Shown here: piece by piece, positions 8,485 through 64,000 of the stretch
Position numbering within the stretch: the stretch's first letter is position 1
Layout: each line of letters begins with the position of its first letter
DNA from: Macrostomum lignano
Lineage: Eukaryota
Assembly: GCA_002269645.1 (NCBI GenBank)
Contig: NIVC01001390.1
Coordinates: 1-64,000 of the forward strand
Direction of reading: 5' to 3'
DNA: 64,000 nucleotides
The notes under the pieces: generated by a model
What the model was told of the DNA's origin: nothing
Databases searched by the model: none
What the model saw: the letters and a program-made list of their open reading frames with translations, nothing else
Program-made: the position numbers and the translations under genes

Positions 8485-8581
<97 letters not shown>

Positions 8582-15317: not shown

Positions 15318-15318
15318 T

Positions 15319-17667: not shown

Positions 17668-18118
17668 TAGCTAGCAGAAGCTTCTGTCAGTGTTTTAGTG
17701 TCCAACATCAGCGGAAGCAAACGGTTGATTTATAGAGTTGGAAGATTTTTAGTTACGAGCGACACCTTTGATTATTGGCTCGGATCTGTCTCTCTAATTC
17801 CATTCTGGGCAAGCCGCTTGCTTCATTTCGAATTTACCCGTCGAAGCATGGCCGTGAGTTTGCTCAATAAAGAAGGAAGATACACAGCTACCGGTAGTAA
17901 GGGATCCGCGGGCAGCCTTGCTGTATCTTGAAGCCAGCTGCATCTAATGGGTACAGAGTTCCGATTGTGAAGCCTTTAGACCGATCAAACACGAGTTAAA
18001 TTGTCAAATATTAGCTCTGACAGCCGTGTGCCCGGTTTGCTATCACCATGACGGCGGAAGCGACAGATGTAGATGGAAAATCCTGGTAGAGTATTCGATA
18101 ACTCGCTTTACTATCTGC

Positions 18119-29950: not shown

Positions 29951-35753
<5,803 letters not shown>

Positions 35754-42800: not shown

Positions 42801-45800
42801 AATACTCCTGACACCCATATTCCTGACACCCATATTCCTGACACCCATATTCCTGACACCCATATTTCTGACACCATTATTCCTGACACCCATGCTCCTG
42901 ACACTCATATTCCTGACACCCATATTTCTGACACCCATATTCCTGACACCAATACTCCTGACAACCATATTTCTGACACCCATATTCCTGACACCAATAC
43001 TCCTGACACCCATATTTCTGACACCCATACTCCTGACACCCAAATACCTAACACCCATATTCCTGACACGCATATTCCTGATACCCATATTCCTGATACC
43101 CATATTCCTGACAATCATATTCCTGACACCCATACTTTTGACACAGAATATTCCCGACACCCATATTTCTGACACCCATATTCCTGACAACATTATTCCT
43201 GACACCCATACTTCTGACACTCATATTCCTGACACCCATATTCCTGATACCCATATTCCTGACAATCATATTCCTGACACCCATACTTTTGACACAGAAT
43301 ATTCCCGACACCCATATTTCTGACACCCATATTTCTGACACCCATATTCCTGACAACATTATTCCTGACACCCATACTCCTGACACCCATATTCCTGACA
43401 CCCATATTTCTGACACCCATATTTCTGACACCCATATTCCTGACAACATTATTCCCGACACCCATACTCCTGACACTCATATTCCTGACACCCATATTCC
43501 TGACACCCATATTTCTGACACCAATACTCCTGACGCCCATATTTCTGACACCCATATTCCTGACACCCATATTTCTGACACCCATATTTCTGACACCCAT
43601 ATTTCTGACACCCATATTCCTGACATTCCTGACACCCATATTCCTCGCACCCATATTAATGACACCATTATTCCTGACACCAATACTCTTGACACCCATA
43701 TTCCTGACACCCATATTTCTGACACCCATATTCCTGACACCCATATTTCTGACACCCATATTCCTGACAACATTATTCCTGACACCCATACTTCTGACAC
43801 TCATATTCCTGACACCCATATTCCTGACACCCATTTTCCTGACAATCATATTCCTGACACCCATACTTTTGACACAGAATATTCTCGACACCCATATTTC
43901 TGACACCCATATTTCTGACACCCATATTCCTGACAACATTATTCCTGACACCCATACTCCTGACACTCATATTCCTGACACCCATATTCCTGACACCCAT
44001 ATTCCTGACACCAATACTCCTGACGCCCATATTTCTGACACCCATATTCCTGACACCCATATTTCTGACACCCATATTTCTGACACCCATATTCCTGACA
44101 TTCCTGACACCCATATTCCTGATACCCATATTCCTGACAATCATATTCCTGACACCCATACTTTTGACACAGAATATTCCCGACACCCATATTTCTGACA
44201 CCCATATTTCTGACACCATTATTCCTGACACCAATACTCTTGACACCCATATTCCTGACACCCATATTTCTGACACCCATATTCCTGACACCCATATTCC
44301 TGACACCCATATTCCTGACAACATTATTCCTGACACCCATACTCCTGACACCCATATTCCTGACACCCATATTTCTGACACCCATATTTCTTACACCCAT
44401 ATTCCTGACACCCATATTTCTGACACCCATATTTTTGACACCCATATTCCTGACACCCATATTCCTGACATCCATATTAATGACACTCCAGTTTCCCCAG
44501 CTGTCTTGAAACGTAAAATCCTTCCACCCGTTAAAGTGACTGGCCAATGCCCAGCTAATGCTAAGGTGTGAGCCAATGCCTACGGCCCAAGTTAGACAGC
44601 AATGCAGTATAACAGAACACTTAAGGACTCCATATCAAGCGCCTTTGTTGCGAGAAAGAGTCACAACCTACCGAGAAAGCTTCTCTAAACAAGTCATGAA
44701 ACGCAGTGAAGGCTCAGACTTGGAAGGCGCTTCGCAGTCACCTGCCTCGACAACTGGCAGTGGCGGCAGGCAGGTTGGGGGAGCCCTGCCAACCAATATG
44801 GCTGGAATCTTTGCTCAGCAATTTTTTCATAAACCAATTGAAGATTTGAAATCGTCAGGTAGGAACTGTGGCGTTAACGTTTTTATGCATGCTGAGGTTT
44901 TAATTCATTGATTCTAGATCATTAGCTCAGTCATGCACACGATCAAGAGCTCTCTTATGAACTCACTCATGATCTCACTCATGATCTCACTCATGAACTC
45001 ACTCATGAACTCACTCATGAACTCACTCACTCAGAAATTCACTCATAAACTCAACTCACTTATTAACTCACTCATGAACTCACTCATGAACTCACTCATA
45101 AACTCATGAACTCACTCATGAACTCACTCATGAACTCACTCATGAACCCACTCATGAACTCACTCAGAAACTCACTCAGAAACTCACTCATGAACTCACT
45201 CATGAACACACTCATGGTCTCACTCATAAACTGGTTTCCAACTCATGAACTTAAACCGCACTCATGTCTAAATTTTTATGCTATCAATTGATGCAGGTTT
45301 CTATACAAAACAGTGGATTTAAAATCTCAGAATTTAGTTCACTCATAAATATCTGAGGGTGCTTTTAACTTTTACTTTCAATCCACCGTGAGAAACTGAA
45401 ATTGGGGGCTGGCAGACTCAGTTTTAAATAATTTATAACGTGCAAGGGCGCTGGCGTGACACGTAGGTCGAATGTGGCCTCATAAACTCTACACTTCTTT
45501 TATCCAGCATTTAAATCGCCCACTCTATCGCCGAGAAGTCAAGATCCGGCAAAGCCCTCCCGCGCCCAAAACAGTACTGACTTTTTATTGCGGTTGTCAG
45601 TTGAAAGATAATTGAAACACGTAAGGCTGAAGTGCAGGAAGCTCCTTGCTATAGCTGCATCTCGCACTGTTATTCTCTTTGATCCATAATCTGCTTATTG
45701 ATTTAATTCGTTCAAAGAATATGCAAAGAAATTGTTAGATATGCTTTAATCTGCAGTTTCTTTTGCACTGATTTGTCTGTCTATTGATTGATCGCATATT

Positions 45801-45979
45801 TGTGCTGGTTTTGTAAGCTGATAATCTATAGCGATTATTGGATGGTTCTGTGCTTCCCACTTCTTCCCCTTTTCAAGCGAATTCTTTCTGTCGTTGTCTT
45901 CCTATGCTTCCATTTCTGTCTCGGTCGTAAACCTCACTGTCTACCTCCCTCTGTCTACCTCTCTCCCCCTCTCCCTCTC

Positions 45980-46011
<32 letters not shown>

Positions 46012-46228
46012 ATATCTCTCATATCTCTCTTTCATCTCTCTCTCTCTCCTGAGAGAGAGATTTTTGGCCTGACGAAGAGCCCAGAGGCTTGAAACCGGTG
46101 GCCTACTTTCAATTAAATAATTTAACACGCCGTGACCTCTCTTCTCTCTCTCTACCTCTCATATCTCTCATATCTCTCTTTCATCTCTCTCTCTCTCTCA
46201 TATCTCTCATATCTCTCTTTTATCTCTC

Positions 46229-46290
<62 letters not shown>

Positions 46291-49200
46291 TCTCTTTCAC
46301 TCTCTCTCACTGTATCTCTCTCACTCTCTCTCTCTCTCTCACTCTCTCTTTCTCTCTCTCCTTCCTCTCTGTCTCACTCTCTCTTTTTCCCCCTGTCACT
46401 CTCTCTCTCACTCTCGTTCTCTCTCTTTCTGCCTACTTCTTAGCCTGTATACCTCTCAGCCTGTCTATCTCTCTCCCTGTGTATATTTCTCATTGTCTGT
46501 TTTTCCTAAAATCGTTATTGCTTCTGCCTAAACGCAAAAAACCGCTAATCTTCGGTCAAGTAAAACAAAAAAACAAAAAACCGCTAATCCCTCATCACAA
46601 GTTGTGAAGTTTTTTCTGTAAATCATATATCGATCCTACGAAAGATAAATTAAGATTTCTCTCTTGGAGAGAAGAGGTCGTTCCATTTAGCCAAGTAATT
46701 TAGGCTTAGAGGATTAAGGTGCTAATTTTTTACGAGTTATCAAACTACTAGTCTGTAAAATTCTCGTTAATGACTTGTGTATTCCTGCGCGGTCTCCTTG
46801 AGAATCGATTATTTCGAAAAATTCTCTCATTTTTCCAGTTTTTTTCTCACTAAAGACCCGATTTCAGTTTGCACTGCATCGCATTATGCAGCTTGGCTCA
46901 CCTGGCGACTCACTCGTTTTGCACTTCAGAACGAGATGATCGACTGCTGGCTCTCAGGGGACGAGGCGGCGGTAGTGGAGGCAGCGGGGGGATCTCGGAG
47001 AGACGCAACGCCAACCCCCTGCTGGGCGGGATCGTGAGTGCCACTCTCCCGGACACCTACCAGCGACTGATTGAGCAAAAACTCCCACTAACTCGGGTCC
47101 TCCGGGGGTGAACTGAAATGACTCCTTCTAATCTAAACTTTTTTATAGCATAGAAGCCTAGGAACTGTTTAACTTGAAAACACCACGGGCTTGAAGTTAG
47201 ATTGACCATGGGTGTTGGCTCGCTGTTGTTTTTTTAGGGAAGCAATGCGGTAGGTTTTCTTGGTTGCATCAAGGAAACTGGAAGCGGATGCACTAAAAAA
47301 TTTGCATATTCTCTTCTCTCCTCTCTTCTCACCTCCGTTTTCTTTAATCTCTTCTCTACTCTCTTCTCACCTCCGTTCTCTCTAATCTCTTCTCTCCTCT
47401 CTTCTCACCTCCGTTCTCTCTAATATCTTCTCATCTCCGTTCTCTCTAATCTCTTCTCTACTCTCTTCTCACCTCCGTTTTCTTTAATCTCTTCTCTCCT
47501 CTCTTCTCACCTCCGTTCTCTCTAATCTCTTCTCTCCTCTCTTCTCACCTCCGTTCTCTCTAATATCTTCTCATCTCCGTTCTCTCTAATCTCTTCTCTA
47601 CTCTCTTCTCACCTCCGTTTTCTTTAATCTCTTCTCTCCTCTCTTCTCACCTCCGTTCTCTCTAATCTCTTCTCTCCTCTCTTCTCACCTCCGTTCTCTC
47701 TAATCTCTTCTCTCCTCTCTTCTCTCCTTTCTTCTCACCTCTGTTTTCTCTAACCTCTTCTCTCCTGTCTTCTCCTTTGTTCCCTCTCCTGGCATTTCTC
47801 CTATCTCTCTATTTCTACATGTCTATCTCTATCTCTCTATCTATGTCTCTATCTATCTGGCACCAGGGTGCACCGTTCGCGTGCTGGGGGATAACGGGAA
47901 TAAGCATAAATCTGTGATGGCACTCGTACTATCAATCCGTTGTTTCAATCTTCAGCAATTGCAGCAGCTGCAGCAGCATCAACACTCAATATTGAAGTGG
48001 CGACGCAATTCAGCCAGCCAACTTCGTTCAGCGGTTGCTTGGACAGAGGGTTTTTTCAGTTTTCTAGGCGGAAAAATTCGAATTTAATTGAGCACTAAAC
48101 TTTAGTGTATAAAACGCAAAGAACTGATTATATCTACCTTGTATTTTAACGGGTAGTGGTAGTTTAACGGGTTATTTCGATTTGCAGGTCAAATATTTAA
48201 GTCGCACGGTGTCAGTTTTAAAAAATCGATGCATCAAAAAACCTTTTTAAAATTTTTTATAAAAATTCGTTTGACAGCAAATAATAAATCAACCAGGTGA
48301 TAAAGCTCAACAACTCTTAAACCCCTCAGGACAATCGAGACAAACTGGCTGACTGCTTGAGACTCTGTGAGCACAGCTCGGCAATGCCAAAGCCTGACAA
48401 TCAAGAACAATTGGAGTCGCTAGGTCTCGAGCTCGAACCCTCCTGGGATCGGGTTGTAGCTCCAGAGGTGAGTTTTGTGCCTAAGCGGCTGCATTTTTGA
48501 GTTTTAAAAGAACCACCGAATGCTTGAACAAACCACTGCTTCCAGAACACAACAACCGCCAAGGCTGTGAAACAGCAGGCGGCAATCTGGGAGCTGCTGC
48601 AGACTGAGGTCAATATTTTGAGGCACCTGAAGACTATTATTGAGGTGAGCAGCCTTCTCAAACTTGTGATTCTCAATTTCTCTGTACACTCTGCTTGCCT
48701 CCCACTCTACTTCTGCTGTCACTCTACTTCTCCTTCCACTCTACTACTCCTTTCACTCTACTTCTGCTTCCACTCTACTTCTCCTTCCACTCTACTTCTC
48801 CTTCCACTCTACTTCTCCTTCCACTCGACTTCTGCTTCCACTCTACTTCTCTCACACTCTACTTCTATCCCACTCTACTTCTGCTTCCACTCTACTTCTG
48901 CTTCCACTCTACTTCTGCTTCCACTCTACTTCTGCTTCCACTCTACTTCTCCTTCCACTCGACTTCTGCTTCCACTCTACTTCTGCTTCCACTCTACTTC
49001 TCCTTCCACTCTACTTCTGCTTCCACTCTACTTCTCCTTCCACTCTACTTCTCCTTCCACTCTACTTCTGCTTCCACTCTACTTCTGCTTCCACTCTACT
49101 TCTCCTTCCACTCTACTTCTCCTTCCACTCTACTTCTGCTTCCACTCTACTTCTCTCCCATTCTACTTCTCTTCCAATCTAATTCTCTTCCACTCTACTT

Positions 49201-52200
49201 CTCTTCTAATCTACTTCTATCCCACTCTACTTCTCTTCCAATCTACTACTCTCCCACTCTACTTCTCTCTTACTGATTCGGAGATATTCGAGAACATATT
49301 CGGTTCAGATATATGATGAAGCGGATCTGACCCTTAAGTTGACTCAGTTGATGAAGCAAAAATGGATACTGATTGAAAAATATTCACTCATGGCTCCCAA
49401 CAGATCGAAAGATAATTCCAAACTGCGTGCATGATCATATATAAGTTTCTGGTTGCATTCAGTATTTTTGTTGGAGGCAGCGGGTTACAGATCACAGCAC
49501 ATTAGGGATTTAGGATCAATATTATTCCCATTTGCAGATTAGCACTCATAAATTGGTGAACTCTGAGTGCATATAAGATTCAGCTTTGGTGCTTTAGGAA
49601 GATTTGGGAAGATGAGAAAGATGGGCACTGGGACAGGCACTCAGACAGACACTGAGACAGGCACTGCGACACACACTGCGACACACACTGAGACACACAC
49701 TGAGACACACACTGAGACACACACTGAGGCAGACACTGAGCCACACACTGAGCCACACACTGAGCCACACACTGAGACACACACTGAGGCAGACACTGAG
49801 ACACACACTGAGACACACACTGAGACACACACTGAGCCACACACTGAGATACACACTGAGCCACACACTAAGCCACACACTGAGCCACACTAAGCCACAC
49901 ACTGAGCCACACACTGAGATACACACTGAGCCACACACTGAGCCACACACTGAGCCACACACTGAGCCACACACTGAGATACACACTGAGCCACACACTA
50001 AGCCACACACTGAGCCACACACTGAGATACACACTGAGCCACACACTGAGATACACACTGAGCCACACACTAAGCCACACACTGAGCCACACTAAGCCAC
50101 ACACTGAGCCACACACTGAGATACACACTGAGCCACACACTGAGCCACACACTGAGCCACACACTGAGCCACACACTGAGCCACACACTGAGATACACAC
50201 TGAGCCACACACTGAGGCAGACACTGAGCCACACACTGAGATACACACTGAGCCACACACTGAGGCAGACACTGAGCCACACACTGAGATACACACTGAG
50301 CCACACACTGAGACAGACACTGAGACACACACTGAGACACACACTGAGCTACACACTGAGACAGACACTGAGCCACACTGAGACAGACACTGAGCCACAC
50401 ACTGAGACACACACTGAGACAGACACTGAGCCACACACTGAGACACACACTGAGACACACACTGAGGCAGACACTGAGCCACACACTGAGATACACACTG
50501 AGCCACACACTGAGACAGACACTGAGACACACACTGAGCTACACACTGAGCTACACACTGAGACAGACACTGAGCCACACTGAGACAGACACTGAGCCAC
50601 ACACTGAGACACACACTGAGCCACACACTGAGCCACACACTGAGACACACACTGAGACAGACACTGAGACACACACTGAGACAGACCACCCCCCTCCCCG
50701 CAAATGCAGGTGCACATGACGGTCCTGAGGCACCTGCAGAGCAGCGCAAATCTCCTGGCTGACGTCAGCTCCGACCAGCTGTTTCCCGGCATCCTGCCAG
50801 TCTTCCAGGCTCACCGGGCCCTATGGACGGAGCACCTGCAACCGGCTCTGGTGTCAGCCAGACAGTCTGGATTGCCAATGCGACGACAGCGTTCTATCGA
50901 GGCTTCACGAGTTTCCGCGAAATATTCGCCCCGTCAGCGCAGTACTGCCTGCGAATTGCCGAGGCCAAGGACTACTTAAAGAGTCTGGAAAAGAACGAAG
51001 TGTTTGCAGACTTTCTTAAGGTACAGCTGTCATTTGCGAATTGAAATTCTATTAAATTTACTTAAAGTAGTGTTTGCTCACGATATTCGACTCAAACTTT
51101 CAGGTACCACTATACCAAAATATACGCGCCATTCTATCCCAAAATTTGGCGCCATTATACCTCAACATTTAACGCCATTCCATCCCAACGTTTGGCGCCA
51201 TTCTACCCCAACATTTGGTGCCATTCCATCCCAACATTTTGCGCCATTCTACCCCAATATTTGGTGTCGTTCTATCCCAACATTTGACGCCATTCTATCC
51301 CAACATTTGGGGCCATTCAATCTTAACATTTGGCGCCATTCCATCCCAACATTTGGCGCCATTCTACTCCAACATTTAGCGCCAATTTTCCCCAGTATTG
51401 GCCGCCATTTTACTTTTCGTCATTTTACACTCCTAATTTCAAATGCATTGTTGCCTTAATCTCACTTTCGAGTTTGAATAGTCATTTTAACAAAAATTTA
51501 CGAGATTAAATTTCACTATGCGACCACCGCCACTCGTTCCAGTGGGCGCAGAGAGTCAGCCAGCGAAATTACAACTCCGAGGACGGTGCGGTGGACCTGC
51601 AGCTTGGCTCACTGCTCACCATGCCCCTACAGCGGGTGATGAAGTACGGCCTGCTGCTGCAGGAGATTCTGCGACACACAGAAGATGGAGAGGAACGGCT
51701 GGCTTTGGAATCGATGGTTGGTTTAACTTTTGACATGAGTAAATTTGTCTTAGATAAGGGCTGATTAACCCATGCATTCATTTTGAGGGTTGTTGACGAT
51801 TAGAAAGTCAGGGCTAATGTACACCCTGTGTGAGCGTGTGTATGAGTGCTGTGCCTGCGTACGGTATTGTCGCGCTTGTGTCTACTTAGGAGTCATTTAA
51901 AATAATTTTTTGCAATACGCAACAGGCCTGAATTTCTTCTTTTTTGACAACAGATCAGTCACGTGACGTCGTTCTGCAATGAGTTGAACTCAACATATCG
52001 GGCCAAATGCGACCAGGCAGAGCTGCGAGGAGTGGCAGATCGAATCGAGGACGCCAAGCTGCCTGACTGGATCGACGGCCTGGGAGACGAGACTGCAACT
52101 GTGCTGGAGTCCTACAGGCTCAACTTGATGAGGCCAATGCCGCACAATGGACAGTTGAGAAGGAGAATCTCTGAAGGCGACGTCAGATTCAAGGACGAAA

Positions 52201-54529
52201 AGGGGAAGGTGAGCAAGGCATTCACCTTGACCACTTGAGCTACTTGATTATCTTGCAGTCATTTAGCTGGTTGAGTGTGCTAAATCCTACATATAGCTAT
52301 TTACAGATTATAGCACAGTTGTTACACTGGCTATTAAATTAATAAATCAGACATGTTTTTGTTCCACCATTTTAAACAAAAATTTCTATTCTACACTACG
52401 AACTCAGTGGAACGACGCCAAGTGCCTGCTGTTCACCGATCTGCTGCTCCTAGCCAAAAGCAGCAAGCGCAACAGTCTTCGGTTGCTGAGACCGCCGCTG
52501 CGTCTGGACCGGCTTGTGTTGCACAAGCTTAGCGACCCGAATAGTGAGTTTCAATCAGATTTAATACAGTATAGCTACATGGCTGCATCTCGTGGTTGTT
52601 GAGAATTTCAAGCGTCCATCATGCCAAGGCCACATATGGTTAAAATAATTTTGCTGAGATGCCATGGCTCAATGGGGAGTTGCTGAGATGCCAATTTGCT
52701 CAATAGAGAGTTGCTGTGATGCCATGGCTCAATGGAGAGTTGCTTAGATGCCATGGCTCAATGGAGAGTTGCTTAGATGCCATGGCTCAATGGAGAGTTG
52801 CTGAGATGCCTTGGTTCAATGGAGAGTTGCTGAGATGCCATGGTCAATGTGGGAGTTGCTGAGATGCCAGGGTCAATGTGGGAGTTGCTGAGATGCCAGG
52901 GTCAATGTGGGAGTTGCTGAGATGCCATGGCTCAATGGGGAGTTGCTGAGATGCCATGGTCAATGTGGGAGTTGCTGAGATACCAATTGGCTCAATGGGG
53001 AGTTGCTGAGATGCCATGGCTCAATGTGGGAGTTGCTGAGATGCCATGGCTCAATGGAGAGTTGCTGAGATGCCTTGGTTCAATGGAGAGTTGCTGAGAT
53101 GCCATGGTCAATGTGGGAGTTGCTGAGATGCCAGGGTCAATGTGGGAGTTGCTGAGATGCCAGGGTCAATGTGGGAGTTGCTGAGATGCCATGGCTCAAT
53201 GGAGAGTTGCTGAGATGCCATGGCTCAATGGGGAGTTGCTGAGATGCCATGGCTCAATGTGGGAGTTGCTGAGATGCCATGGCTCAATGGGGAGTTGCTG
53301 AGATGCCAATTGGCTCAATGGGGAGTTGCTGAGATGCCATGGCTCAATGGGGAGTTGCTGAGATGCCAATTGGCTCAATGGAGAGTTGCTGTGATGCCAT
53401 GGCTCAATGGAGAGTTGCTGAGATGCCAATTGGCTCAATGGGGAGTTGCTGAGATGCCATGGCTCAATGGAGAGTTGCTGAGATGCCATGGCTCAATGGG
53501 GAGTTGCTGAGATGCCATGGCTCAATGTGGGAGTTGCTGAGATGCCATGGCTCAATGGGGAGTTGCTGAGATGCCAATTGGCTCAATGGGGAGTTGCTGA
53601 GATGCCATGGCTCAATGGGGAGTTGCTGAGATGCCAATTGGCTCAATGGAGAGTTGCTGTGATGCCATGGCTCAATGGAGAGTTGCTGAGATGCCAATTG
53701 GCTCAATGGGGAGTTGCTGAGATGCCATGGCTCAATGGAGAGTTGCTGTGATGCCATGGCTCAATGGAGAGTTGCTGAGATGCTATGGCTCAATGGGGGA
53801 GCTGCTGAGATGCCAGGGTCAATGTGGGAGTTGCTGAAATGCCATGGCTCAATGGAGAGTTGCTGAGATGCCAAGGCTCAATTGAGAGTTGCTGGGATGC
53901 TTCGATTCTTCGAACCGAAACCGAATTTTAAACCGAATTTCTTCTCCACAGATTCCTTACTTCTAGTGGCTCTCACTGATTTTGGCAGCGTTGACTGCCT
54001 GATGTGCCTCGCCTGCGATAGTCAGAAGGCAACGGACGAGTGGAGTGATCGAATTTCGCAGGCCAGGATTCTGCTTGCGGCACAGCTGCAGCAGCAGCAA
54101 CAACAGCTGCAGCAGCAGAAGACGGTCGCTCTGCAACCCAGCGCTCCGTCCCTGCAGCCTCAAACCAGCGTCGACGCAGTACGATTGCGTAATCATCATC
54201 AGCAGCATCCGGTGCATCAACAGCAACAACGCTCGGCAACTGTTGCCATAGCAACCAGCAGCTACTCAACTATTAGTAGCAATAGCAGCCAGCAATTACA
54301 CTATACTAGGAGTAGCGGCGATATGGAGTCGTTATTGACCACAACAATATCGGTTACTCATCATCACCAGCAACAGCAGCAGCACCAGCGTTATACTACT
54401 CACTTGAGTAGTTTCACTGATGTTGAGCCGGCGACTATTGATAGTACGGGAACTGGGAGCGTTGGCATTGCTGCAGCCAGTGCTGTTTCCGGAGTAGAAG
54501 ATCAGCAAGATGCAAGGAGAAGCTCGTAA
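36817..54529 (+). CDS. PLEKHG5: DH-PH Rho guanine nucleotide exchange factor, PLEKHG5/6/7 family
   Basis: DH/PH exons 48330-48467 (LELEPSW), 48546-48644 (QQAAIWELLQTE), 50710-51020 (1-bp frameshift), 51543-51716 (LLTMPLQRVMKYGLLLQEI), 51954-52208, 52408-52543 (CLLFTDLLLLAK...LLRPPLRLDRL), 53952-54529. N-terminal exons 36817-36956, 38230-38317, 38847-39263, 41875-41894, 42470-42591 are phase-compatible; exons between 44.5 and 48.1 kb are only partly resolved. Confidence 0.85.
37345..37935. repeat. 30-bp minisatellite, RhoGEF intron 1
   Basis: caacagccaccagaggctgctcttgcaagt repeats. Confidence 0.95.
38395..38823. repeat. ~21-bp minisatellite (accctacaggctgaccctaca)
   Basis: Direct reading; ends about 20 bp before the acceptor at 38846. 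Confidence 0.93.
39368..41832. repeat. ~35-bp minisatellite (caccattctctgcccacacaccctctccctcactg) followed by an 18-bp array
   Basis: Direct reading. Confidence 0.96.
42747..44485. repeat. 15-bp minisatellite (cctgacacccatatt) with higher-order blocks
   Basis: Direct reading. Confidence 0.96.
44955..45250 (-). repeat. Inverted copy of the atgagtgagttc 12-bp satellite
   Basis: gaactcactcat repeats. Confidence 0.92.
45955..46430. repeat. (CT)n-rich microsatellite region
   Basis: Direct reading. Confidence 0.9.
47310..47760. repeat. 38-bp pyrimidine minisatellite
   Basis: ctcttctcacctccgttctctctaatctcttctctcct repeats. Confidence 0.9.
48700..49265. repeat. 17-bp minisatellite (cttccactctacttctg)
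   Basis: Direct reading. Confidence 0.93.
49630..50685. repeat. 12-bp minisatellite (actgagccacac)
   Basis: Direct reading; ends about 25 bp before the acceptor at 50709. Confidence 0.95.
51125..51410. repeat. Degenerate 23-bp minisatellite (tttggcgccattctatcccaaca)
   Basis: Direct reading. Confidence 0.85.
52645..53885. repeat. 29/30-bp minisatellite (ggagttgctgagatgccatggctcaatgg)
   Basis: Direct reading; contains a 268-bp higher-order duplication (identical ORFs at 53196 and 53464). Confidence 0.95.
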
Positions 54530-54674: not shown

Positions 54675-55510
54675 AAGAGGTTGACACTTCAAAAAGGATG
54701 GTTGACACTACATGAAGGATGGTTGACACTACATGAAGGATGGTTGACACTACATGAAGGATGGTTGACACTTCAAAAAGGATGGTTGACACTTTAGAAA
54801 GGATAGTTGACACTTCAAAAAGGATGGTTGACACTTTGGGAAGGATGGTTGACACTTTGAGAAGGATGGTTGACACTTTGGGAAGGATGGTTGACACTTT
54901 GGGAAGGATGGTTGACACTTTGGGAAGGATGGTTGACACTTTGGGAAGGATGGTTGACACTTTGGCAAGGATGGTTGACACTTTGGGAAGGATGGTTGAC
55001 ACTTTGGCAAGGATGGTTGACACTTTGGGAAGGATGGTTGACACTTTGGGAAGGATGGTTGACACTTTGGAAAGGATGGTTGACACTTTGGGAAGGATGG
55101 TTGACACTTTGGCAAGGATGGTTGACACTTTGGCAAGGATGGTTGACACTTTGGGAAGGATGGTTGACACTTTGGCAAGGATGGTTGACACTTTGGGAAG
55201 GATGGTTGACACTTTGGGAAGGATGGTTGACACTTTGGGAAGGATGGTTGACACTTTGGCAAGGATGGTTGACACTTTGGGAAGGATGGTTGACACTTTG
55301 GGAAGGATGGTTGACACTTTGGGAAGGATGGTTGACACTTTGGGAAGGATGGTTGACACTTTGGGAAGGATGGTTGACACTTTGGGAAGGATGGTTGACA
55401 CTTTGGGAAGGATGGTTGACACTTTGGGAAGGATGGTTGACACTTTGGGAAGGATGGTTGACACTTTAGGAAGGATGGTTGACACTTTGGGAAGGATGAT
55501 TGACACTTCA
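54675..55510. repeat. 21-bp minisatellite (ggatggttgacactttgggaa) downstream of the RhoGEF stop
   Basis: Direct reading. Confidence 0.96.
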
Positions 55511-56754
55511 GAAAGGTGCAGCGTGCTTTTCGCTTTAAGAGGCGCCACTTCACTTCAGTTAAAGTACCGAAGCTCTTTTTTATATCCGCATGGTTCTTTA
55601 AGATATTTGAAAGAGGTTTAGACTTCTGCCTGAATTCATATCTCTAGAACAGGCTGAATCAGGTATGTAGTTATTGTTTAGTAACTCCAGATTATTAAAA
55701 CTATTCGTAATCGCTAACTTTCAGACACGTGTGACCGATGCATATCCATGACTGCAAACAATGGAATCAAAATGCGTAAAAATGCTAGAAAGGTACATGA
55801 AAAAACTTCTAAACACTGATATTCGACCAACGGTTTTGAGTGGGCATTTTTTGTTTAACTATATTGACTCTAATTCATATACATGCGATGGTAGTACCTA
55901 TATAGTTCTGTAGCCATGCATGTAATTCTCTAAATTTACAAACGGAATTTGATAAAGTAATTGACTATATCTAGATCTGTATACTTTAGGTTAAGTAGAA
56001 ACATTTTGCATGAACATGTACATAGTATGTGTTCTGTATATAATGTTTACTCTAATATTTTATGTTTTGTGTAGCTTTTGTTTATTGTACATTCAAAATT
56101 AATTATATGTGCAGCACGGCCTAAAAAAGCAAATTCAAATTAACAACTGATTGAGCCTACCTAACCGCGCACTTCATTAACTTACTCATGGCTATCGTAT
56201 TTTGTGTCGCATAATAGTTTTATATTTAAAAGACAGTAAAAATTACTTCATAAAACCACATAATTGTGTATATTATCAGGCAAATAATATTTCGTAATGA
56301 TGTGATTTAATAGTCAATTTATTGCTCTTCAACTGTAAACTTTGTGTAGTGCCAGCGGTCTCTGAAGGTTACAGAAAAGAGCAAAAAGTTTTTGATGAGA
56401 TACTAAGCTCAAATTATATGCTTTAAAGCGAGTATCTTGTAACTATTGCACTGACAACGGCTTATTTTTCACATCACGATTAGATCATGCATATTTTGCC
56501 GATCTGTATATAGCGCTACATCCAGCAAAGATGTAAAACTTGAGACGACGGGTTTTTCTACAATTTTTTTCAGTCGTTAGATACTTGATTTAAAAGCTTC
56601 ATATAAACGCACATGGACACGCCATATATCTAATTGTAAGTTCTATGAAATACTTGTTTTGCCGTGGGAAATTCTGGTACGCCCAGGGGTGCGCAGACCG
56701 CGGCGCCCGGTGGCCTGTGGCCGGTAGCGGGGCGCACTAGTAGTAATAGGAAAT

Positions 56755-56990
56755 TACACACAACCCCGAATTTTACATTATAGAACAAATAGGAAGGTAT
56801 CCGTCAAAAATTTCAATACACACAACCCCGACTTTTACATTACAAAATGAATAGGAAGGTATCCGTCAGAATTTTCGTTACACACATCCCCTGTTTCTAT
56901 ATTACAAAATGAATAGGACGGTTCCCACCATAAACGCAGTACGCAAAGACCCAATTTTCGCACTGCAAAACAAATCGGACTGTATCCGAT
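56755..56990. repeat. Four ~62-bp subterminal direct repeats within the presumed TIR
   Basis: tacacacaaccccgaattttacatta...aataggaaggtatccgtc starts at 56755, 56817 and 56879, with a degenerate copy at 56940. Confidence 0.85.
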
Positions 56991-57531
56991 TGTATTTTAT
57001 CACATTTGGCCAAATGCGAATCTACTGGGTTGTATGGCATAAATAAATTTTCACACACGCAGCCTTTATTGGTCTTATTTCGTGATCAGTATAATCAGGA
57101 ACCAAATCAAGCCTTTCATGATTATTGTCTGTATATTTTACTGTTATCAAAACGAGTTGTTTGTATTGGATAGTCAGTACGATCGATTACAGCAAGGATA
57201 CATAACTACGCAGACTCCGGTATAATCGCAAATAATAATTTATTGAACGAATTTTCTCTCGCCCCGCAAACAATCAGGAAGTAACAGCCGGATTGCATCT
57301 GAATAAAGACCGGTAATGCAAAACATTTGAGCGATTCTACACAAAAAAACAGTCGGAGTGCCTTGGATTTAATATAATGTATCTAAACTACGCTCGTATT
57401 TTGGGATAATAAAAACTGAGGTTAAACCATCACGACAAACCATTGCAACGATATATAACTGCGGTAAAACCAATTGAATCGAGAAGCGCGCGCAGGATTA
57501 AGAGCATCATGTAAAAACTAACGATTCTGCA

Positions 57532-58095
57532 TTACAAGAACAGAGGCAACACATGTGCTGCAAAGCGTCGCAGGCAAAAATACGCGCGCCGAAATTCATT
57601 CCTTCGACGAGACCCACAACCAAGAATACGCGTTAAAAAGAATCGAAGGCTACCACCACGAGTCAGTTTGAAATACAAATAAAACAACACCCAAATACCA
57701 CAATGACCAGTCCGAGGATCCTGAATAGCAAATCGGCTGTAGGACCAATTTTGAAAATCCCCACATTCTCGCCCCAACCACCGTCTAATATTTTCGGGCG
57801 GATTTAAACCAAGCGAATCAAAATACTCCCCGACTCTTCGTCCACGGCGCCCCCTAACCCGCCTGCCACTCACCCAAACTGCAACCCAATGCCTACCAGG
57901 AAGATTCGAAGTGTCTGTATTCGCCACAAAGAAATAGTTTTTACCATCTAAAGGTAATTGTCCAAGAGTTCTAATCGAGTCCTGAGGATACACACCCAAA
58001 AAGACAACACTAAACAATCCCATGCAGAGTTTGGTAATAGTCGACCGCAAGAATCTGTCACTGACACCCTGCAACATGTTCAGATTCACTTCCAT
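57532..58095 (-). CDS. Adenain-like cysteine protease (Polinton PRO)
   Basis: ANTDTSNLPGRHWVAVWV (His), EYFDSLG (Asp), IQDPRTGHCGIWVLFYL (Gln, Cys); 187 aa. Confidence 0.92.
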   Translation of the reverse strand: MEVNLNMLQGVSDRFLRSTITKLCMGLFSVVFLGVYPQDSIRTLGQLPLDGKNYFFVANTDTSNLPGRHWVAVWVSGRRVRGRRGRRVGEYFDSLGLNPPENIRRWLGRECGDFQNWSYSRFAIQDPRTGHCGIWVLFYLYFKLTRGGSLRFFLTRILGCGSRRRNEFRRAYFCLRRFAAHVLPLFL

Positions 58096-59411
58096 GCTGT
58101 GCCCGGCACGACGTCGCGAAGCTCCGTAATCTGCAGCTGCTTGTCAAATAGACCACCGAATATTACATTGTAGACAACGCTTGTTGCTTGAGCGAAGCGC
58201 AACTCCAACTTTACATTGCCTTCCTTATAGAGCTGAGCACCATGGCCAACACCAGGCTCGCTTCCCAACGCAAACGCGAAAATCGAGTACCCACTGCCAT
58301 AGTCCTCCATTGTAAAGCCAACGTCGCGTCCTTGCAGATACAAGCCCAACTGCTGCACCAGATAGGTATATTCTGTCACACAACCACCTGCACCAAAATT
58401 CGTCTGCAGAGGCCGCGAAGGGACGGACTCCCCGTTCACAAACACACCAATGCTGTTGAGATTTGCATGCTCGAAATTGAACGGATTTGTATCCATACTT
58501 CCGTTAAAAGCCTTGTTGTTCACAAAGGCTACCAGAAGTAACCTCGGCACCCCGCTCGGGAACAAATTCTCGTGCGTATGACTGGACGATCCGCGCGGAA
58601 TAGTAAACGTGCCAAGACTCAAGCTACGGTGTGGATACAAAGCATTGTGGCTTTTCAAACCATGCGCATGCGCTCCAAGTACACTGGGGGACGGTTCCAC
58701 AAAACGAACACGCAGCTCCGCTTGAAGGATAGATATAGTATAGTCCTTCAATTCAACACCTGTTCCGATTGCCGAACCACTCAGAACGAACTTACTCTTC
58801 GCTGGTAGGAACTTGAGTCGTAGTGGAGTTTTTGAGAGCATATACCGCGGCTGCCGAAACAAATCGAGGAACAGAGGTCCAGACACAGTGCACTGTTTAT
58901 TGTCCGCAATCAGAGCCTTCCGCTTCACCCGTCCACTATTTCCCGTAGTACCATCCATTTGTCCAGCAGTATCCTTGTAAAAGCCCCAAGGAGCCAAAGC
59001 AGTCTTCTGTGCAACACTTCCATACTCCAGCAGAGTCAGTAGCATTGCCTTGTACGGATACATAAAAGTTCCACCTTCCACCACAGTGTCCCCAATATTG
59101 AATTGCACATCCTCGAAAAGACTCGCAATCGCCAAATTGTTGAGGCACACGTTGTTCTTTGCCGCATCAATAGCCGCTCCGTCAGCATCACTCACCCGAA
59201 ACTTGACACTCAAGACCGTCTCACGCAGGTCAATATACAAATCACCTGCAGGCACTATTTCAAACTCTATTGGCGAACCCTGACCGATGCCATGTTGCGG
59301 TTGTATTGTGGTGTAACGACTATCCACCACACTAAACTGAACAGGCGTCGAATCGAACAGCGACAATTCACTCTTGAGCGCAGCGATATCCGGCCCCAGC
59401 AGCTGATTCAT
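58086..59411 (-). CDS. Polinton major capsid protein (PY, double jelly-roll)
   Basis: 441 aa from the ATG at 59411: KSELSLF...PIEFEI...YIDLRET...YPYKAMLLTLLEYG...GPLFLDLFRQPRY...NPFNFEH...GNVKLELRFA. Confidence 0.9.
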   Translation of the reverse strand: MNQLLGPDIAALKSELSLFDSTPVQFSVVDSRYTTIQPQHGIGQGSPIEFEIVPAGDLYIDLRETVLSVKFRVSDADGAAIDAAKNNVCLNNLAIASLFEDVQFNIGDTVVEGGTFMYPYKAMLLTLLEYGSVAQKTALAPWGFYKDTAGQMDGTTGNSGRVKRKALIADNKQCTVSGPLFLDLFRQPRYMLSKTPLRLKFLPAKSKFVLSGSAIGTGVELKDYTISILQAELRVRFVEPSPSVLGAHAHGLKSHNALYPHRSLSLGTFTIPRGSSSHTHENLFPSGVPRLLLVAFVNNKAFNGSMDTNPFNFEHANLNSIGVFVNGESVPSRPLQTNFGAGGCVTEYTYLVQQLGLYLQGRDVGFTMEDYGSGYSIFAFALGSEPGVGHGAQLYKEGNVKLELRFAQATSVVYNVIFGGLFDKQLQITELRDVVPGTAWK

Positions 59412-59424
59412 AATAAACGATCGG

Positions 59425-59856
59425 CTAACCAAACAGACTGTAGATGTTCTTCTTACTCTTCTTCTTCCTGGGCTTTCGAGATTTTGACGATTTTCGTCTC
59501 GCCTTCCCACTCGTCTTCCTTTTCCTCTTCTGGGATTTCTTCCTTCGCACACCACCACGACTGCTTATAGACCCAACTGTCCGTCTTCGCTTCTTGGGTA
59601 CCAACAAATCCTCACCAGCTTCAACAACCGAACCACCTCGTTTTAGACCGCGCCCATTCTTCGCTGGGGCGAGGAGATCCAATCCCTTTGTGAGCAACTC
59701 CCGTGCCCCACTGCGCAGTACCGGGTACAAGACTTTCTCATGTAAATTTGAAAGAAACCCATACCCTTCGTACACAGGTATAGCAGGATGCACGCTACCT
59801 CGTCCTCCAATCGAAGAAGAACGCGGACCCGAATAGAATTCAAAAATCGGATCCAT
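59425..59856 (-). CDS. Basic DNA-condensing core protein (adenovirus pVII-like)
   Basis: 143 aa; Gly motifs IGGRG and YEGYG followed by FLSNLHEKVLYPVL, and a very Lys/Arg-rich C-terminus. Confidence 0.7.
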   Translation of the reverse strand: MDPIFEFYSGPRSSSIGGRGSVHPAIPVYEGYGFLSNLHEKVLYPVLRSGARELLTKGLDLLAPAKNGRGLKRGGSVVEAGEDLLVPKKRRRTVGSISSRGGVRRKKSQKRKRKTSGKARRKSSKSRKPRKKKSKKNIYSLFG

Positions 59857-59898
59857 TTACGACGTAACGAAATACTTGCAGTACTTGCCCCTCATCCT

Positions 59899-61077
59899 TT
59901 ACTTATAGGTTCTAGCAAACAGTCGTGCAGTTTTTGCATCAAGCTCCTGCTCTCGTAACCACTGACTTTTGAATTTGCCCAAGTCTTTCCACTCTACTAA
60001 GTAGCGCGGTTTACCGTCTGTAGACCGATCAACATCCAGCACTCGCTCAATCACAGTAGGTTCCTCCCGTGGGAGGTTTACCTCCAATAGTTCCGACTCG
60101 TTAAATCGCCCTTCCAATAACTCAAAGTTTGCATCCGGATCGCTCAGTTCATACATTGGAGGGTTGCTGTTGATTGATCGTGCAACCCGATAAACCGTGT
60201 TGCTCCAAGTAGTCGAAAAACCCTTCTCAAAAACACCTCGTCGTCTCGCAATTCGAACCCAAGTACCAACACTGAAACGCGGCTTTCTTCGCTTCTGCTG
60301 TTCCATTCCAAACATTTTCTCCCAAAGTATTCCTTGAAGATGTGGATCTTGTGATACCTCTCTCGGGGTTCTACCACTTAAAGAGCGATGCGGACTTGAG
60401 TTAAAGTTTGTCTCCAGTTTTCCCAACACATCAAACCAACGAGGCAGTTTCTTTGCTCTAAAATAACGCTCCATTCGCTCCTTCAACGAGCGAATAAAAC
60501 GCTCCGCCATGCTTGCCTTGTACGTACTTTGACTCACAAAGAAGCGGACGCCTTCTTCCTTGAGCATTTTCTGAGTATCACGTCCAAGAAATTCCATTCC
60601 TGCATCGCCCTGCAAATACAGCGGCTTGAAACCACTCTTGAAAATATCGCGTAAAACTCGACTCACTTCCGTGGGTTTTTTGGTGCGAAGTGCGCGTAGA
60701 CGAACAACTCTAGTGAAGCAGTCAATTAAAACCATGATGAAACGATAGCCCCGATTCTCAGCCTGATACTGTTGCATATCTGCCAAGTCGATCTGAAACT
60801 GAAACCGACCAACAGGCGGGACACTAATTTTTGGTGTAGGGAAATTCCGTCGAGCCTTTTGAAACAGATGGTGCTCCTGAGTTGACCGTATCCAATCGAG
60901 CACAATTTCTCGCGCAATCCCTAACCGAATCTGAGGGAATTTATTGCGCACCGCCCGAAGCAAGCTCGTTTTATTTCCAGAATAAGAAGACGGATTCTCC
61001 AAGTCAAAAAACTGGCGATCAAGAAAATCGTGTACAGCACTATGAATCGGGTGGTTGGTCTTCTTGCGCCCCTCCAT
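59899..61077 (-). CDS. Retroviral-type (RVE) integrase with C-terminal chromodomain-like region
   Basis: 392 aa; FQIDLADM, LQGDAGMEF, SMAERFIRSLKE (D,D,E); VRIARRRGVFEKG; VIERVL...RYLVEWKDL...SQW. Confidence 0.93.
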   Translation of the reverse strand: MEGRKKTNHPIHSAVHDFLDRQFFDLENPSSYSGNKTSLLRAVRNKFPQIRLGIAREIVLDWIRSTQEHHLFQKARRNFPTPKISVPPVGRFQFQIDLADMQQYQAENRGYRFIMVLIDCFTRVVRLRALRTKKPTEVSRVLRDIFKSGFKPLYLQGDAGMEFLGRDTQKMLKEEGVRFFVSQSTYKASMAERFIRSLKERMERYFRAKKLPRWFDVLGKLETNFNSSPHRSLSGRTPREVSQDPHLQGILWEKMFGMEQQKRRKPRFSVGTWVRIARRRGVFEKGFSTTWSNTVYRVARSINSNPPMYELSDPDANFELLEGRFNESELLEVNLPREEPTVIERVLDVDRSTDGKPRYLVEWKDLGKFKSQWLREQELDAKTARLFARTYK

Positions 61078-61267
61078 GAATATCGGTTGAAACAGCTCCG
61101 CCCTGTGTGTTGCAGCAGTTAAAACTCGCTTGAACGTTCACAATGTGATCTGCAAGATCTTCCTCCTTTTCAATGCAACTAGGCACCAATCGAGCGCAAC
61201 ATAGGCGTTGACGAGCAAAAAAACGACAAACGCATAGACAAATTCTACGCCAAACGTCAGACGACAT
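61040..61267 (-). CDS. Small Cys-rich Polinton ORF of unknown function
   Basis: 75 aa ORF in the co-oriented array, preceded by TATAAG and aaaaATG; overlaps the integrase start. Confidence 0.5.
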   Translation of the reverse strand: MSSDVWRRICLCVCRFFARQRLCCARLVPSCIEKEEDLADHIVNVQASFNCCNTQGGAVSTDIHGGAQEDQPPDS

Positions 61268-61318
61268 TTTTATTGGCTCAGCATACTTTTCAAATAAACG
61301 AATCCTGACAAGCTTATA

Positions 61319-61795
61319 CTAATCAAGGGTCTCGTATTGTTCCAGAGCATTCAGATCGTCCGACGCAGCAACGTTGCTTACACCCTCCTCCTCGTCGTCG
61401 TCATTCCCTTTAAACGACTGCAGGAGTCCTCGGACATGCTGACCAACAAGACGACTAGGCACGTTACGTCTACGCAAAAAATCCAGAAAAGATTCAAAGC
61501 CAACAGGGGGAGAACTACCATGTCTTTTTAGCGGTCTGTCTCGGACAACATACTCAAGCAACTTTTCCACTTCCTCCCCCGATAAAGACGATGGAAGAGC
61601 CTTCGCAGAACTACCCTCTTCTTCGAAAAGATTTTTTACAAGAGCATCGTATCGCCCTTTGAATGCCTTTGGAAGCCGACTTACAAATTTCGGTGCTTCC
61701 TCAACACCAACCTCTCGAACAGGACCGCTACTTGGCCCATTTTGCAGTATTCGCCGAGAATTTAGCAACTTGCTTTCCAAATCAGAGCGTTTCAT
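61319..61795 (-). CDS. Conserved Polinton hypothetical protein, C-terminal half
   Basis: 158 aa; PPVGFESFLDFLRRRNVPSRLVG resembles the PxGWxxFxxxLxxxNxP motif of Polinton hypothetical proteins. Confidence 0.65.
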   Translation of the reverse strand: MKRSDLESKLLNSRRILQNGPSSGPVREVGVEEAPKFVSRLPKAFKGRYDALVKNLFEEEGSSAKALPSSLSGEEVEKLLEYVVRDRPLKRHGSSPPVGFESFLDFLRRRNVPSRLVGQHVRGLLQSFKGNDDDEEEGVSNVAASDDLNALEQYETLD

Positions 61796-62028
61796 TTGAG
61801 CTGTCGGAAACGAAACCGGATTTTTGCCATCTGTTCGTCTAGTTTGTCCATTTCTAGCTGCGTAGACACGATATCCTTTTGCAGAGCAACGTTTGGGGTG
61901 TCTAGTGGGTCGGTCCTTCTCGGCGGCGGCGGCGGCGGCGGCGCTTCTTGCTGCTGCTGCTGGGATAAAACATGGTAGACACTTTCAGGCAAGAGAACCA
62001 TTCGTCGTAGGTCATCCCGCTTGTCCAT
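61792..62028 (-). CDS. Polinton hypothetical protein, N-terminal half (overlaps the next ORF by ATGA)
   Basis: 78 aa; RMVLLP...LEMDKLDEQM. Confidence 0.55.
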   Translation of the reverse strand: MDKRDDLRRMVLLPESVYHVLSQQQQQEAPPPPPPPRRTDPLDTPNVALQKDIVSTQLEMDKLDEQMAKIRFRFRQLK

Positions 62029-62034
62029 CAGGCA

Positions 62035-62463
62035 CTATTTTCTTTGAATTGCTCGAACTAAATTTGCTGTACCAGCGGCGGTTCCTGCGATACCAGATGT
62101 AATTCCCAATGCAGTCGCTATAGTCGGTAGTGCGGCGATAATTGGGGCCAGGAAAGGAAGAAATCCCCCGTGCTGGACAATAATTTTCTTCTTTTTACTT
62201 AGAGATTTTTTTCGATCCACCAGTTGGCGTATGTACTTGGCGTGCTTCTCAAGCCGCTTTTTGTCGCATGGAGAGATCGGTACACGCCGATTGACAATAT
62301 TTAGCAGCAATTCAACCAAACACCTCACTTCGGCCAGCGTGAGCGTTTCTAGAAACTTTTTTCGTTGAATCTGACTACCAAACCGCGTAACAATTTGTAA
62401 AATATTCGCACAGCGGGATAGAGACGTGGCACTCCGCTTGGCTTTTTCCGAGATTCTCTGCAT
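62035..62463 (-). CDS. Conserved Polinton small protein with an adenovirus pX-like hydrophobic C-terminus
   Basis: 142 aa; LVELLLNIVN, KKKIIVQHGGFLPFLAPIIAALPTIATALG. Confidence 0.8.
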   Translation of the reverse strand: MQRISEKAKRSATSLSRCANILQIVTRFGSQIQRKKFLETLTLAEVRCLVELLLNIVNRRVPISPCDKKRLEKHAKYIRQLVDRKKSLSKKKKIIVQHGGFLPFLAPIIAALPTIATALGITSGIAGTAAGTANLVRAIQRK

Positions 62464-62544
62464 AGGGCCTCAACACACACAGAGTCGCGGCTGCAGTTTT
62501 CCAAGTCGGAACATTGTTAGAATAAACAACAAGTCAACGTTTGC

Positions 62545-63540
62545 TTATAAATCTGAGCGCCGTCGAAAATGTAACACAGCAACTACATGAGCTCCAGGGC
62601 GAAAATTCAACGCTTGCCCCCGCTGATCACAAAGCCGGATGCTAATCTCCGAAACAAGTAGACGACTAGTTTTCAAGTAGTGTGGTGTCTGAAGAGCACT
62701 ACTATCACGCACGAGCTCACCATCTTTCCTCTGCTGAAGTTCAACAACACGTAGCAAGGGAACAGAAGTACTCCCCACAGCTTGGTACTCGACTATGTCA
62801 GTGTAGCAGTACATGTAAACGGTCTTAGTGCTGATTGATGCGCTGGTGCCACTTGTATCCAAGTAGGTCTTATAAAAACGCCACGTCTTATTCTTTTTCC
62901 AGTATGAATACACACTGTTCCATGTAGTAGAAGAACTGCGCTCGGTGTAGAGGCCCTTATCACTGACCAGATGCAAGCTCTCCCCAGGATCAAGAACGCA
63001 CTCAAAGCTCAACCACTCGTCCGTGAAGAGCTCAGTAACCTCACCCATGCTCTTGATGAAATCTTTGTAGTCGCCATCGGGAGATTCCAGATCGGTGCTC
63101 TCCGGCTCACCCAAATTGCTCACAATCTTTTTCCACTTTGCAAAATAGTTCATCAGCATGAAATGCTTAGGAAGCTCTACTGACAAAGTCTTCTTTCCAG
63201 CATTATGTAGAACCCACACCATCTTGCTTTTTTCGTCGTTTGGTTTCCACGAAACATAAGCTTCCAAATCAACGTCCTCCCAAACGCGTCCAAAATAATT
63301 GGAGGTGCTTTTAAGAATTTGCGAAATATCTGCAAAGTAGGGCACTTCAAATCGCCGAGTTCGATTACCGCTCGTTGCTACAACCGCACCTTGGCATAGT
63401 AATTCAACCAGAGCTACCTCGTACGATCCGATACCATTCGGAGCCAAGTCGAGAGGTTCTTTAAGTCGTACCCTGAAATCGTTCGGACTATTGTCCGAGT
63501 AAGATTTGTCGTTTGACGGCAAAAAGACGTAGAAACTCAT
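62545..63540 (-). CDS. Polinton minor capsid protein (PX, penton-like)
   Basis: 331 aa; MSFYVFLPSN...FRVRLKEPLDL...YEVALVEL; MYCYTDIVEYQAVG...PLLRVV...ISIRLCDQRG...AVLHFRR. Confidence 0.88.
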   Translation of the reverse strand: MSFYVFLPSNDKSYSDNSPNDFRVRLKEPLDLAPNGIGSYEVALVELLCQGAVVATSGNRTRRFEVPYFADISQILKSTSNYFGRVWEDVDLEAYVSWKPNDEKSKMVWVLHNAGKKTLSVELPKHFMLMNYFAKWKKIVSNLGEPESTDLESPDGDYKDFIKSMGEVTELFTDEWLSFECVLDPGESLHLVSDKGLYTERSSSTTWNSVYSYWKKNKTWRFYKTYLDTSGTSASISTKTVYMYCYTDIVEYQAVGSTSVPLLRVVELQQRKDGELVRDSSALQTPHYLKTSRLLVSEISIRLCDQRGQALNFRPGAHVVAVLHFRRRSDL

Positions 63541-63573
63541 TCTCTGAATCCGAGCACGCTTCTTGTTGACTCC

Positions 63574-64000
63574 TTAGCTTATAAGAGGTAAAAAAGCATC
63601 ACCAATTTCCGAAGCCTTGTTGTAAACAATGTGCTTGTCACCTGGAAAAATCCCAGTTCGAAAACGCAAAAAGTCGGGTGTTTTCTGTCGCAAATCAATG
63701 AACAGATAGCTATGCGGTTTGTTGTCAGTGGCGTCTTCGTAGGCACGAACCAAGAATTTACTGCCCCGACTGAGCATTTGCTGACTCAAGTGTTGAACGG
63801 CAGATCGATCTCGCACACTCCTCATGAGACAAATATAACTAGCTGATAGACTCCGAGTTCGCGCCTCTGGATCCGACCGATTAAATAAATTTTGGCAAAG
63901 GTACACACACGTTAAGGGTATATGATGTGCATATTTTGTGAACATGCCAGTCAAGGCTGTAGACTTAGCAACTTCGCTTTGTAAATCGTCCACTACCACG
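63574..64000 (-). CDS. FtsK/A32-like packaging ATPase, C-terminal part (5' end outside the window)
   Basis: VVDDL (Walker B), YAHH, VYLCQNLF, RTRSLSASY, RDRSAV, AYEDAT, SYLFIDL, RFRTGIFP. Confidence 0.9.
   Translation of the reverse strand, partial: VVVDDLQSEVAKSTALTGMFTKYAHHIPLTCVYLCQNLFNRSDPEARTRSLSASYICLMRSVRDRSAVQHLSQQMLSRGSKFLVRAYEDATDNKPHSYLFIDLRQKTPDFLRFRTGIFPGDKHIVYNKASEIGDAFLPLIS

Follow-up and report, generated by a model that had tools for sequence, protein, structure and literature searches.

The right end of a 64,000-nucleotide stretch of contig NIVC01001390.1 (below, the window means this whole stretch) holds the left 7.3 kilobases (kb) of an endogenous Polinton/Maverick (class Polintoviricetes), at positions 56739-64000. 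The family is already known; Polintons encode a DDE integrase, a protein-primed polymerase, a capsid protein, a penton, a packaging ATPase and a maturation protease (PMC11071308, PMC10748475; here and below, statements from publications refer to the parts of each source that were available). The features of the element and its left junction are given with the evidence for each (aa, amino acids; bp, base pairs; ORF, open reading frame).

56733..56738, plus strand: predicted left copy of the 6-bp target-site duplication, CGCACT, at the end of a seemingly multi-copy host stretch (sequence)
56739..56744, plus strand: left terminus with the (AGT)2 motif, AGTAGT (boundary fixed independently by contig loose ends)
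56755..57001, plus strand: four decaying 62-bp subterminal repeats (100, 85, 65 and 61% to the first copy)
57532..58095, minus strand: Adenain/Ulp1-type maturation protease, 187 aa (PDB match, conserved residues)
58086..59411, minus strand: major capsid protein, modelled as a double jelly-roll, 441 aa (homologues, structure model, Foldseek)
59425..59856, minus strand: basic 143-aa protein with 38 K+R and 9 D+E (position, composition)
59899..61077, minus strand: retrovirus-like DDE integrase with a C-terminal chromodomain, 392 aa (Pfam, conserved triad)
61040..61267, minus strand: small 75-aa ORF that may or may not be a gene (ORF list)
61319..62028, minus strand: accessory gene split by a frame change near 61.8 kb into ORFs of 78 aa (61792-62028) and 158 aa (61319-61795) (alignments to proteins P0123 and P0122)
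62035..62463, minus strand: 142-aa protein with a C-terminal stretch like adenovirus protein X (pX) (Pfam, relatives)
62545..63540, minus strand: minor capsid protein (penton), modelled as a single jelly-roll with a long variable middle, 331 aa (homologues, structure model)
63574..64000, minus strand: C-terminal part of an FtsK/A32-type packaging ATPase, cut by the window edge (sequence match to a relative)

From 57532 to the window edge there were seven ORFs of at least 140 aa opening with ATG, and the minus strand had all of them (mean of 0.04 and maximum of 1 in 200 shuffles). The minus-strand ORFs for the protease, major capsid, basic protein, integrase, pX-bearing protein and minor capsid were free of stops, the coding share of 57532-64000 was 96.5%, and intergenic gaps ran from -38 to +81 bases. 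No ATG ORF of at least 60 aa was present in the left 0.8 kb of the element, and no further Polinton pieces were found in positions 1-56738 of the window.

Pfam returned no match for the major capsid protein (DJR-like_dom was matched in 1 of 74 family members), so folds were used for identification. The protein had 94 homologues among 7999 scored candidates, and its structure model (predicted local distance difference test [pLDDT], 89.6) was matched by Foldseek to the capsids of Paramecium bursaria chlorella virus 1 (PBCV-1) and Sputnik at an expectation value (E) of ~2-4e-16, the full range across PBCV-1, Sputnik and mavirus being 2e-16 to 6e-15; the modelled fold identifies the 441-aa ORF as a double jelly-roll major capsid. 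The minor capsid had 27 homologues and a model with a pLDDT of 61, in which both ends exceeded 90 and the middle was of low confidence. The top six rows of its VIA comparison were all virus capsid chains (Z 9.5-12.2); the values were Z 12.2 for a PBCV-1 capsid chain (root-mean-square deviation [rmsd] 3.6, 140 aligned) and Z 11.4 for the mavirus penton (rmsd 2.6, 129 aligned). As modelled, the 331-aa ORF is a penton-fold minor capsid. Its length exceeds that of most relatives (250 to 264 aa).

The protease was matched in the PDB to S273R of African swine fever virus (E 1.9e-6), and residues H69, D93, Q125 and C132 were common to 36, 35, 37 and 37 of 37 relatives, respectively. Protease relatives occurred in 55 of the 80 loci of our comparison set, which were metagenome loci related to capsid P0020 (34% to the window), mostly of one clade and not independent. 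At 187 aa, the window's protease is longer than most relatives (~143 aa) and has an arginine-rich insert; rows for BPTI and for toxin repeats in the PDB-type search were judged to be chance. The integrase was matched by the Pfam families rve (E 2.6e-6) and Chromo (E 8.2e-5), neither of which reached the curated cut-off, and its D97, D158 and E192 were common to all 21 distinct relatives. The ATPase piece was 41% identical to residues 82-205 of a 206-aa relative (E 4e-30), which itself gave weak A32/IVa2 Pfam matches at its N-terminus; the Walker B aspartates were kept in 16/16, and Walker A would fall beyond the window. All of the core genes seen were open and, the window-cut ATPase excepted, none was shorter than its relatives.

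An earlier note, made from the letters of the window, had proposed a Polinton/adintovirus virion module, and the gene identities, folds and catalytic residues bear this out. Its description of stop-free, co-oriented and tightly packed ORFs agrees with the ORF list, the shuffles and the gap sizes, and its claim that catalytic residues are present holds for the integrase (21/21) and the protease (35 to 37 of 37). The ATPase ORF, which it had counted towards a complete morphogenesis module, does carry the Walker B aspartates but is a C-terminal part only, with Walker A outside the window. It expected any polymerase to lie rightwards, in keeping with a left 0.8 kb without an ATG ORF of 60 aa or more.

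The smaller ORFs were named from position, composition and distant likeness. The basic 143-aa protein sits before the capsid gene, the same position as in the relatives, with phmmer matches at E 0.002-0.007 in 6 of the 80 loci and a profile E of 0.036 (weak sequence support), and its matches in the atlas were unnamed clusters with low recognition. It is likely the core-like protein of the PW/Cupiennin position, and its composition would suit a role in condensing DNA. The 142-aa protein was matched by Adeno_PX (E 6.9e-5, residues 98-134, under the cut-off), had no PLA2 (phospholipase A2) match in Pfam, and had relatives in 31 of the 80 loci (best E 2e-11); it is likely the protein called PZ or GasderminX, a name taken from the descriptions in PMC8502044 and PMC8097293 and not from reference sequences. 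The 75-aa ORF had no match among the 1296 ORFs of the 80 loci.

The window or part of it was found in 20 of 24 listed runs of one organism, across nine studies, and four runs (X1, X4, X5 and X11) were compared with it. X11, conceivably an RNA run, has contigs that cover the host flank as well. The left end had been placed at 56739 from the letters, and in all four runs a contig tracks the flank to 56738 and then departs from the window into other sequence. Such contigs are an empty allele or another copy of the host stretch, and the boundary is fixed either way. The (AGT)2 motif is the commonest Maverick end motif (PMC8097293). AGTAGT alone is a weak marker, occurring 10 times on the plus strand of the window, so the boundary rests more on the contig divergence at 56738. 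The 62-bp subterminal repeats are likely part of, or adjoin, a terminal inverted repeat. On the host side, the stretch at ~56400-56738 was GC-rich, with raised depth and variant copies in 4/4 runs; depth in the bin 56443-56723 was ~4-6 times that of the flank in three runs (contig depth, which gives no copy number). The stretch had no Rfam match and no unusual hairpin (z -0.7). The two foreign continuations at the loose ends are not present in the window.

That the join is an assembly chimera, or free virus or contaminant sequence connected to host DNA, would fit the finding that no listed contig piece spans 56738/56739 (623 pieces lie beyond those listed). We nevertheless consider this very improbable, for the join coincides exactly with a canonical (AGT)2 end, runs from four studies contain both element and flank at similar depth, and a capsid fragment lies inside a named host gene model. 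Within P0094, which is labelled Macrostomum lignano, a piece of 31 aa is 97% identical to the C-terminus of the capsid.

The same runs hold further copies. Contigs of 945 and 1104 bases in X1, covering parts of the flank and of the element, showed 0 differences from the window, and likewise in X4; a 2001-base contig in X11 over 59543-61544 carried 58 other letters and 23 gap letters. A joint of 58243 to 61459 was present in 4/4 runs, and others connected 58198 to 58327 and 61555 to 61599, with depth raised over 57525-58409 and 61459-61600. Over 57567-58409 (the protease and the capsid end), depth was several-fold above the rest (contig depth, a hint only), and one shared foreign sequence, not in the window, was joined before 57525 or 57805. 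This suggests a multi-copy family of internally deleted derivatives with a different left flank. There seem to be several members of the family in the host, some of them deleted derivatives that would need a complete copy as helper.

Deleted derivatives in all four runs also suit a dead, truncated relic, in which youth or chance has kept the capsid half and the polymerase half or the right end has been lost. The contig 56799-57554 stood at about flank depth (178 versus 195 in X4, 15 versus 20 in X1, 76 versus 104 in X5), so a long identical right-hand repeat is not evident, and vertebrate Mavericks are mostly degraded (PMC8097293). A short inverted repeat would, however, give the same depth pattern (the published minimum is 46 bp; PMC8097293), depth nowhere fell below that of the flank before the window edge, which the ATPase reading frame reaches without a stop; a relic is, in our estimation, improbable.

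Between the window and the other copies, 15 integrase differences were listed, 13 of them residue-changing and 2 silent. In the absence of selection a silent share of 22% would be expected, so drift seems to be under way in at least one copy. This bears on a further explanation, a host-domesticated capsid gene cluster kept under selection for a host function. The structural genes are open, as domestication would have it, and the closest match to the major capsid in BFVD is a bracovirus protein (27% identity), such capsids occurring in other viral contexts. Yet the integrase is intact, the terminus is crisp, a form of the site free of the element exists, introns are absent and the differences between copies look unselected, and we give this explanation next to no credence. 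Open core genes, together with the element-free form of the flank in 4/4 runs, make a recent insertion plausible.

One gene is broken as assembled. With an overlap of 4 bases, the 78-aa and 158-aa ORFs, neither of which the earlier note had listed, have the look of two genes, but the former matches residues 6-63 (E 4e-8) and the latter residues 76-246 (E 1.4e-17) of P0123, a single 247-aa protein. For both P0123 and P0122, the alignment to the window changes from one frame to another near 61.8 kb. Because adjoining ORFs match one protein in two frames, they are one gene, broken in the window, which calls for caution with neatly overlapping ORFs that resemble coupled genes. The earlier description of the element as apparently intact therefore fails, as assembled, at this gene, whose halves lie in different frames. 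A full HMMER search with the 158-aa ORF retrieved two proteins among 1.84 billion representatives, and neither the word-indexed search nor the atlas gave a match for it. The gene stands where the relatives have a post-pX gene of 70 to 171 aa; a profile of 30 such genes missed P0123 and gave the 78-aa ORF no better than E 0.011, in a stretch of low complexity, so that the gene is tied to the post-pX family by position only. P0122 is a 1879-aa gene model that joins a dUTPase piece, the relative of the broken gene and two protease/integrase blocks like those of long terminal repeat retroelements, likely a sister Polinton interrupted by a retrotransposon.

The frame change may be a young mutation or an assembly slip. 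If it is a slip, and if the right half is complete, the element would be fully intact and potentially active. Three of the four runs differ from the window in length at the break, and two of these (X4 and X5) have contigs that agree with the window letter for letter in neighbouring genes; the core genes seen are all open and of full length against relatives, bar the window-cut ATPase, and the sister protein P0123 is whole. Against this, X1, the closest match to the window elsewhere, had no length difference at the break (0 of a depth of 29.2), the integrase differences between copies look unselected, and the right half lies outside the window. We therefore hold a fully intact element to be rather unlikely, with somewhat less than one chance in four. 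In PMC8097293, intact means that none of the eight conserved ORFs is interrupted and that repeats and duplication are present; by that measure the element has six candidates open, the ATPase partial and one further gene, which may or may not be among the eight, broken.

Taken together, we think it reasonably probable that a Polinton/Maverick, of which the window holds the left part, was inserted at 56739 into the genome of what is likely Macrostomum lignano, that this is likely a young copy starting to drift, and that its capsid, protease and integrase genes are open and one accessory gene is broken as assembled. Several observations weigh against this account. The Macrostomum lignano label comes from one short match (P0094), the host-element junction is unbridged among the listed pieces, and depth taken from contigs is not copy number. 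Two capsid differences between copies are silent, and the drift count uses 30 of 40 listed rows, 415 in all, and does not tell the drifting copy apart. At the break, a length difference from the window runs through the full depth of the X4, X5 and X11 contigs, and there are four other places where none of the four runs agrees with the window; these differences suggest private letters or assembly slips.

Gene order sets the window apart from its relatives. The 80 loci have the same gene set, in the order ATPase, pX, post-pX gene, integrase, minor capsid, basic gene, major capsid and protease. The integrase precedes the minor capsid in all 40 loci that hold both, and the minor capsid precedes the pX gene in 0 of 28, whereas in the window the minor capsid gene lies between the ATPase and pX genes. 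The penton gene is therefore shifted relative to 40/40 relatives and to vertebrate Mavericks. Layout also varies among the relatives themselves. Between its ATPase and pX genes, L046 carries a gene of its own for phospholipase A2 (L046:6243-6752), which the window part lacks, and L042 has a polymerase-like ORF past the protease, on the other strand (L042:8098-11553). PolB-like motifs were found upstream of the ATPase in two of three long relative ORFs examined (L046 and L057), the position that a polymerase would take in the window's element. These long ORFs match two motif patterns and are presumably polymerase-like; the one in L046 was not named as a polymerase by Pfam or PDB.

In a quick tree of 85 capsids (restricted to homologues of 370 to 480 aa and to those before P0085), the window grouped with P0001/P0002 (68% capsid identity; Shimodaira-Hasegawa-like approximate likelihood ratio test [SH-aLRT], 99) and with P0003 (48%; SH-aLRT, 100), apart from labelled mollusc, fish, echinoderm and ant sequences. 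For P0001 and for P0124 the longest contig is given as 5921 bases, and the two likely come from one sister element. P0001/P0002, P0003 and P0123/P0124 are known as proteins without DNA context, and the shifted penton may or may not be lineage-wide. No close loci were found in viral_contigs with the capsid and ATPase piece as queries, or in metagenome_contigs with the four closest capsids. A bolder reading would make this a flatworm-specific Polinton lineage with its own gene order (the penton now next to the ATPase), two or more subfamilies (capsid identity 68%) and numerous deleted derivatives, still active and particle-forming in a laboratory model flatworm. As a whole we consider it a long shot. 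If true, the worm would be a place to observe animal Maverick virions; as of PMC8097293, no particles of animal Mavericks had been observed.

The life cycle outlined here follows established knowledge of the family and is proposed for this element. On insertion, the DDE integrase would join the genome, a linear molecule with inverted repeats at its ends, to host DNA and duplicate 6 bp (CGCACT by prediction). Replication of the released DNA would begin at its ends and be the work of a protein-primed polymerase, expected to the right of the window. The two small basic proteins would serve to condense the genome, which the ATPase would drive into a capsid built of double jelly-roll capsomers, the vertices being taken by pentons; the protease would mature the particle. 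For this copy we infer the host, the age, the target-site duplication, the polymerase and any formation of particles, which the earlier note had put forward as a possibility. The element extends a well-described group, present in thousands of animal genomes, by a flatworm branch and by one departure from an otherwise conserved gene order. It would carry greater weight if the right half proved whole and the family expressed, since a cultured worm would allow direct observation of a young family.

The rest of the window holds genes and repeats. Two genes like reprolysin (M12B) metalloproteases lie on opposite strands and face each other at 6783-12721, with one catalytic exon confirmed by Pfam and the other gene judged by likeness, and small genes with an F5/8 type C (galactose-binding) domain are repeated at 14944-20501, at least two of them near-copies. 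Dense, long micro- and minisatellite arrays with periods of 2 to 140 fill 23073-55508 (for example, CAGA x 570 at 30292-32582 and a 21-mer x 39 at 54679-55508). Plus-strand exons are scattered among long tandem repeats at 38811-54529, the last stop lying 2.2 kb before the element; the pieces at 48528, 50823 and 53897, which had no Pfam match, presumably resemble a RhoGEF DH-PH protein.

Polintons of flatworms have been in print before. Insertions of Orthopolintovirales are known in Rhabditophora (bioRxiv 10.1101/2025.04.19.649669), and planarian polintons are PIWI targets repressed by SMEDWI-2 (PMC8532177). The available parts of these two papers do not describe the window's element; in the former, "Macrostom" has 0 occurrences in the main text, and the supplements may list it. 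Literature that pairs Macrostomum with Polinton or Maverick concerned other subjects, judged by title (most subscription papers and the repeat databases were outside the scope). The earlier suggestion of an uncharacterised lineage for this host group thus stands in so far as no paper on a Macrostomum Polinton was found, and falls short in that Rhabditophora insertions and planarian polintons are already published.

Compared with known systems, the element resembles the adintoviruses and the vertebrate Mavericks. The likeness to adintoviruses is by description and position only, without reference sequences: the Beta-class protein GasderminX is, like the window's 142-aa protein, the product of a small gene with a pX-like C-terminus and no phospholipase domain, and Cupiennin is, like the basic protein, encoded beside the hexon (Starrett et al. 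2021, PMC8502044). Alpha and Beta adintoviruses are defined by the polymerase, which in this case is outside the window (PMC8502044). Vertebrate Mavericks share with the window the (AGT)2 end, the integrase, minor and major capsid, protease and ATPase genes, a basic gene right before the major capsid, and intronless, tightly packed genes, and the elements of Xenopus tropicalis likewise have all genes on one strand (Barreat and Katzourakis 2021, PMC8097293). Their module runs integrase, minor capsid, PW, major capsid and protease (PMC8097293), and it is this module that the order in the window breaks.

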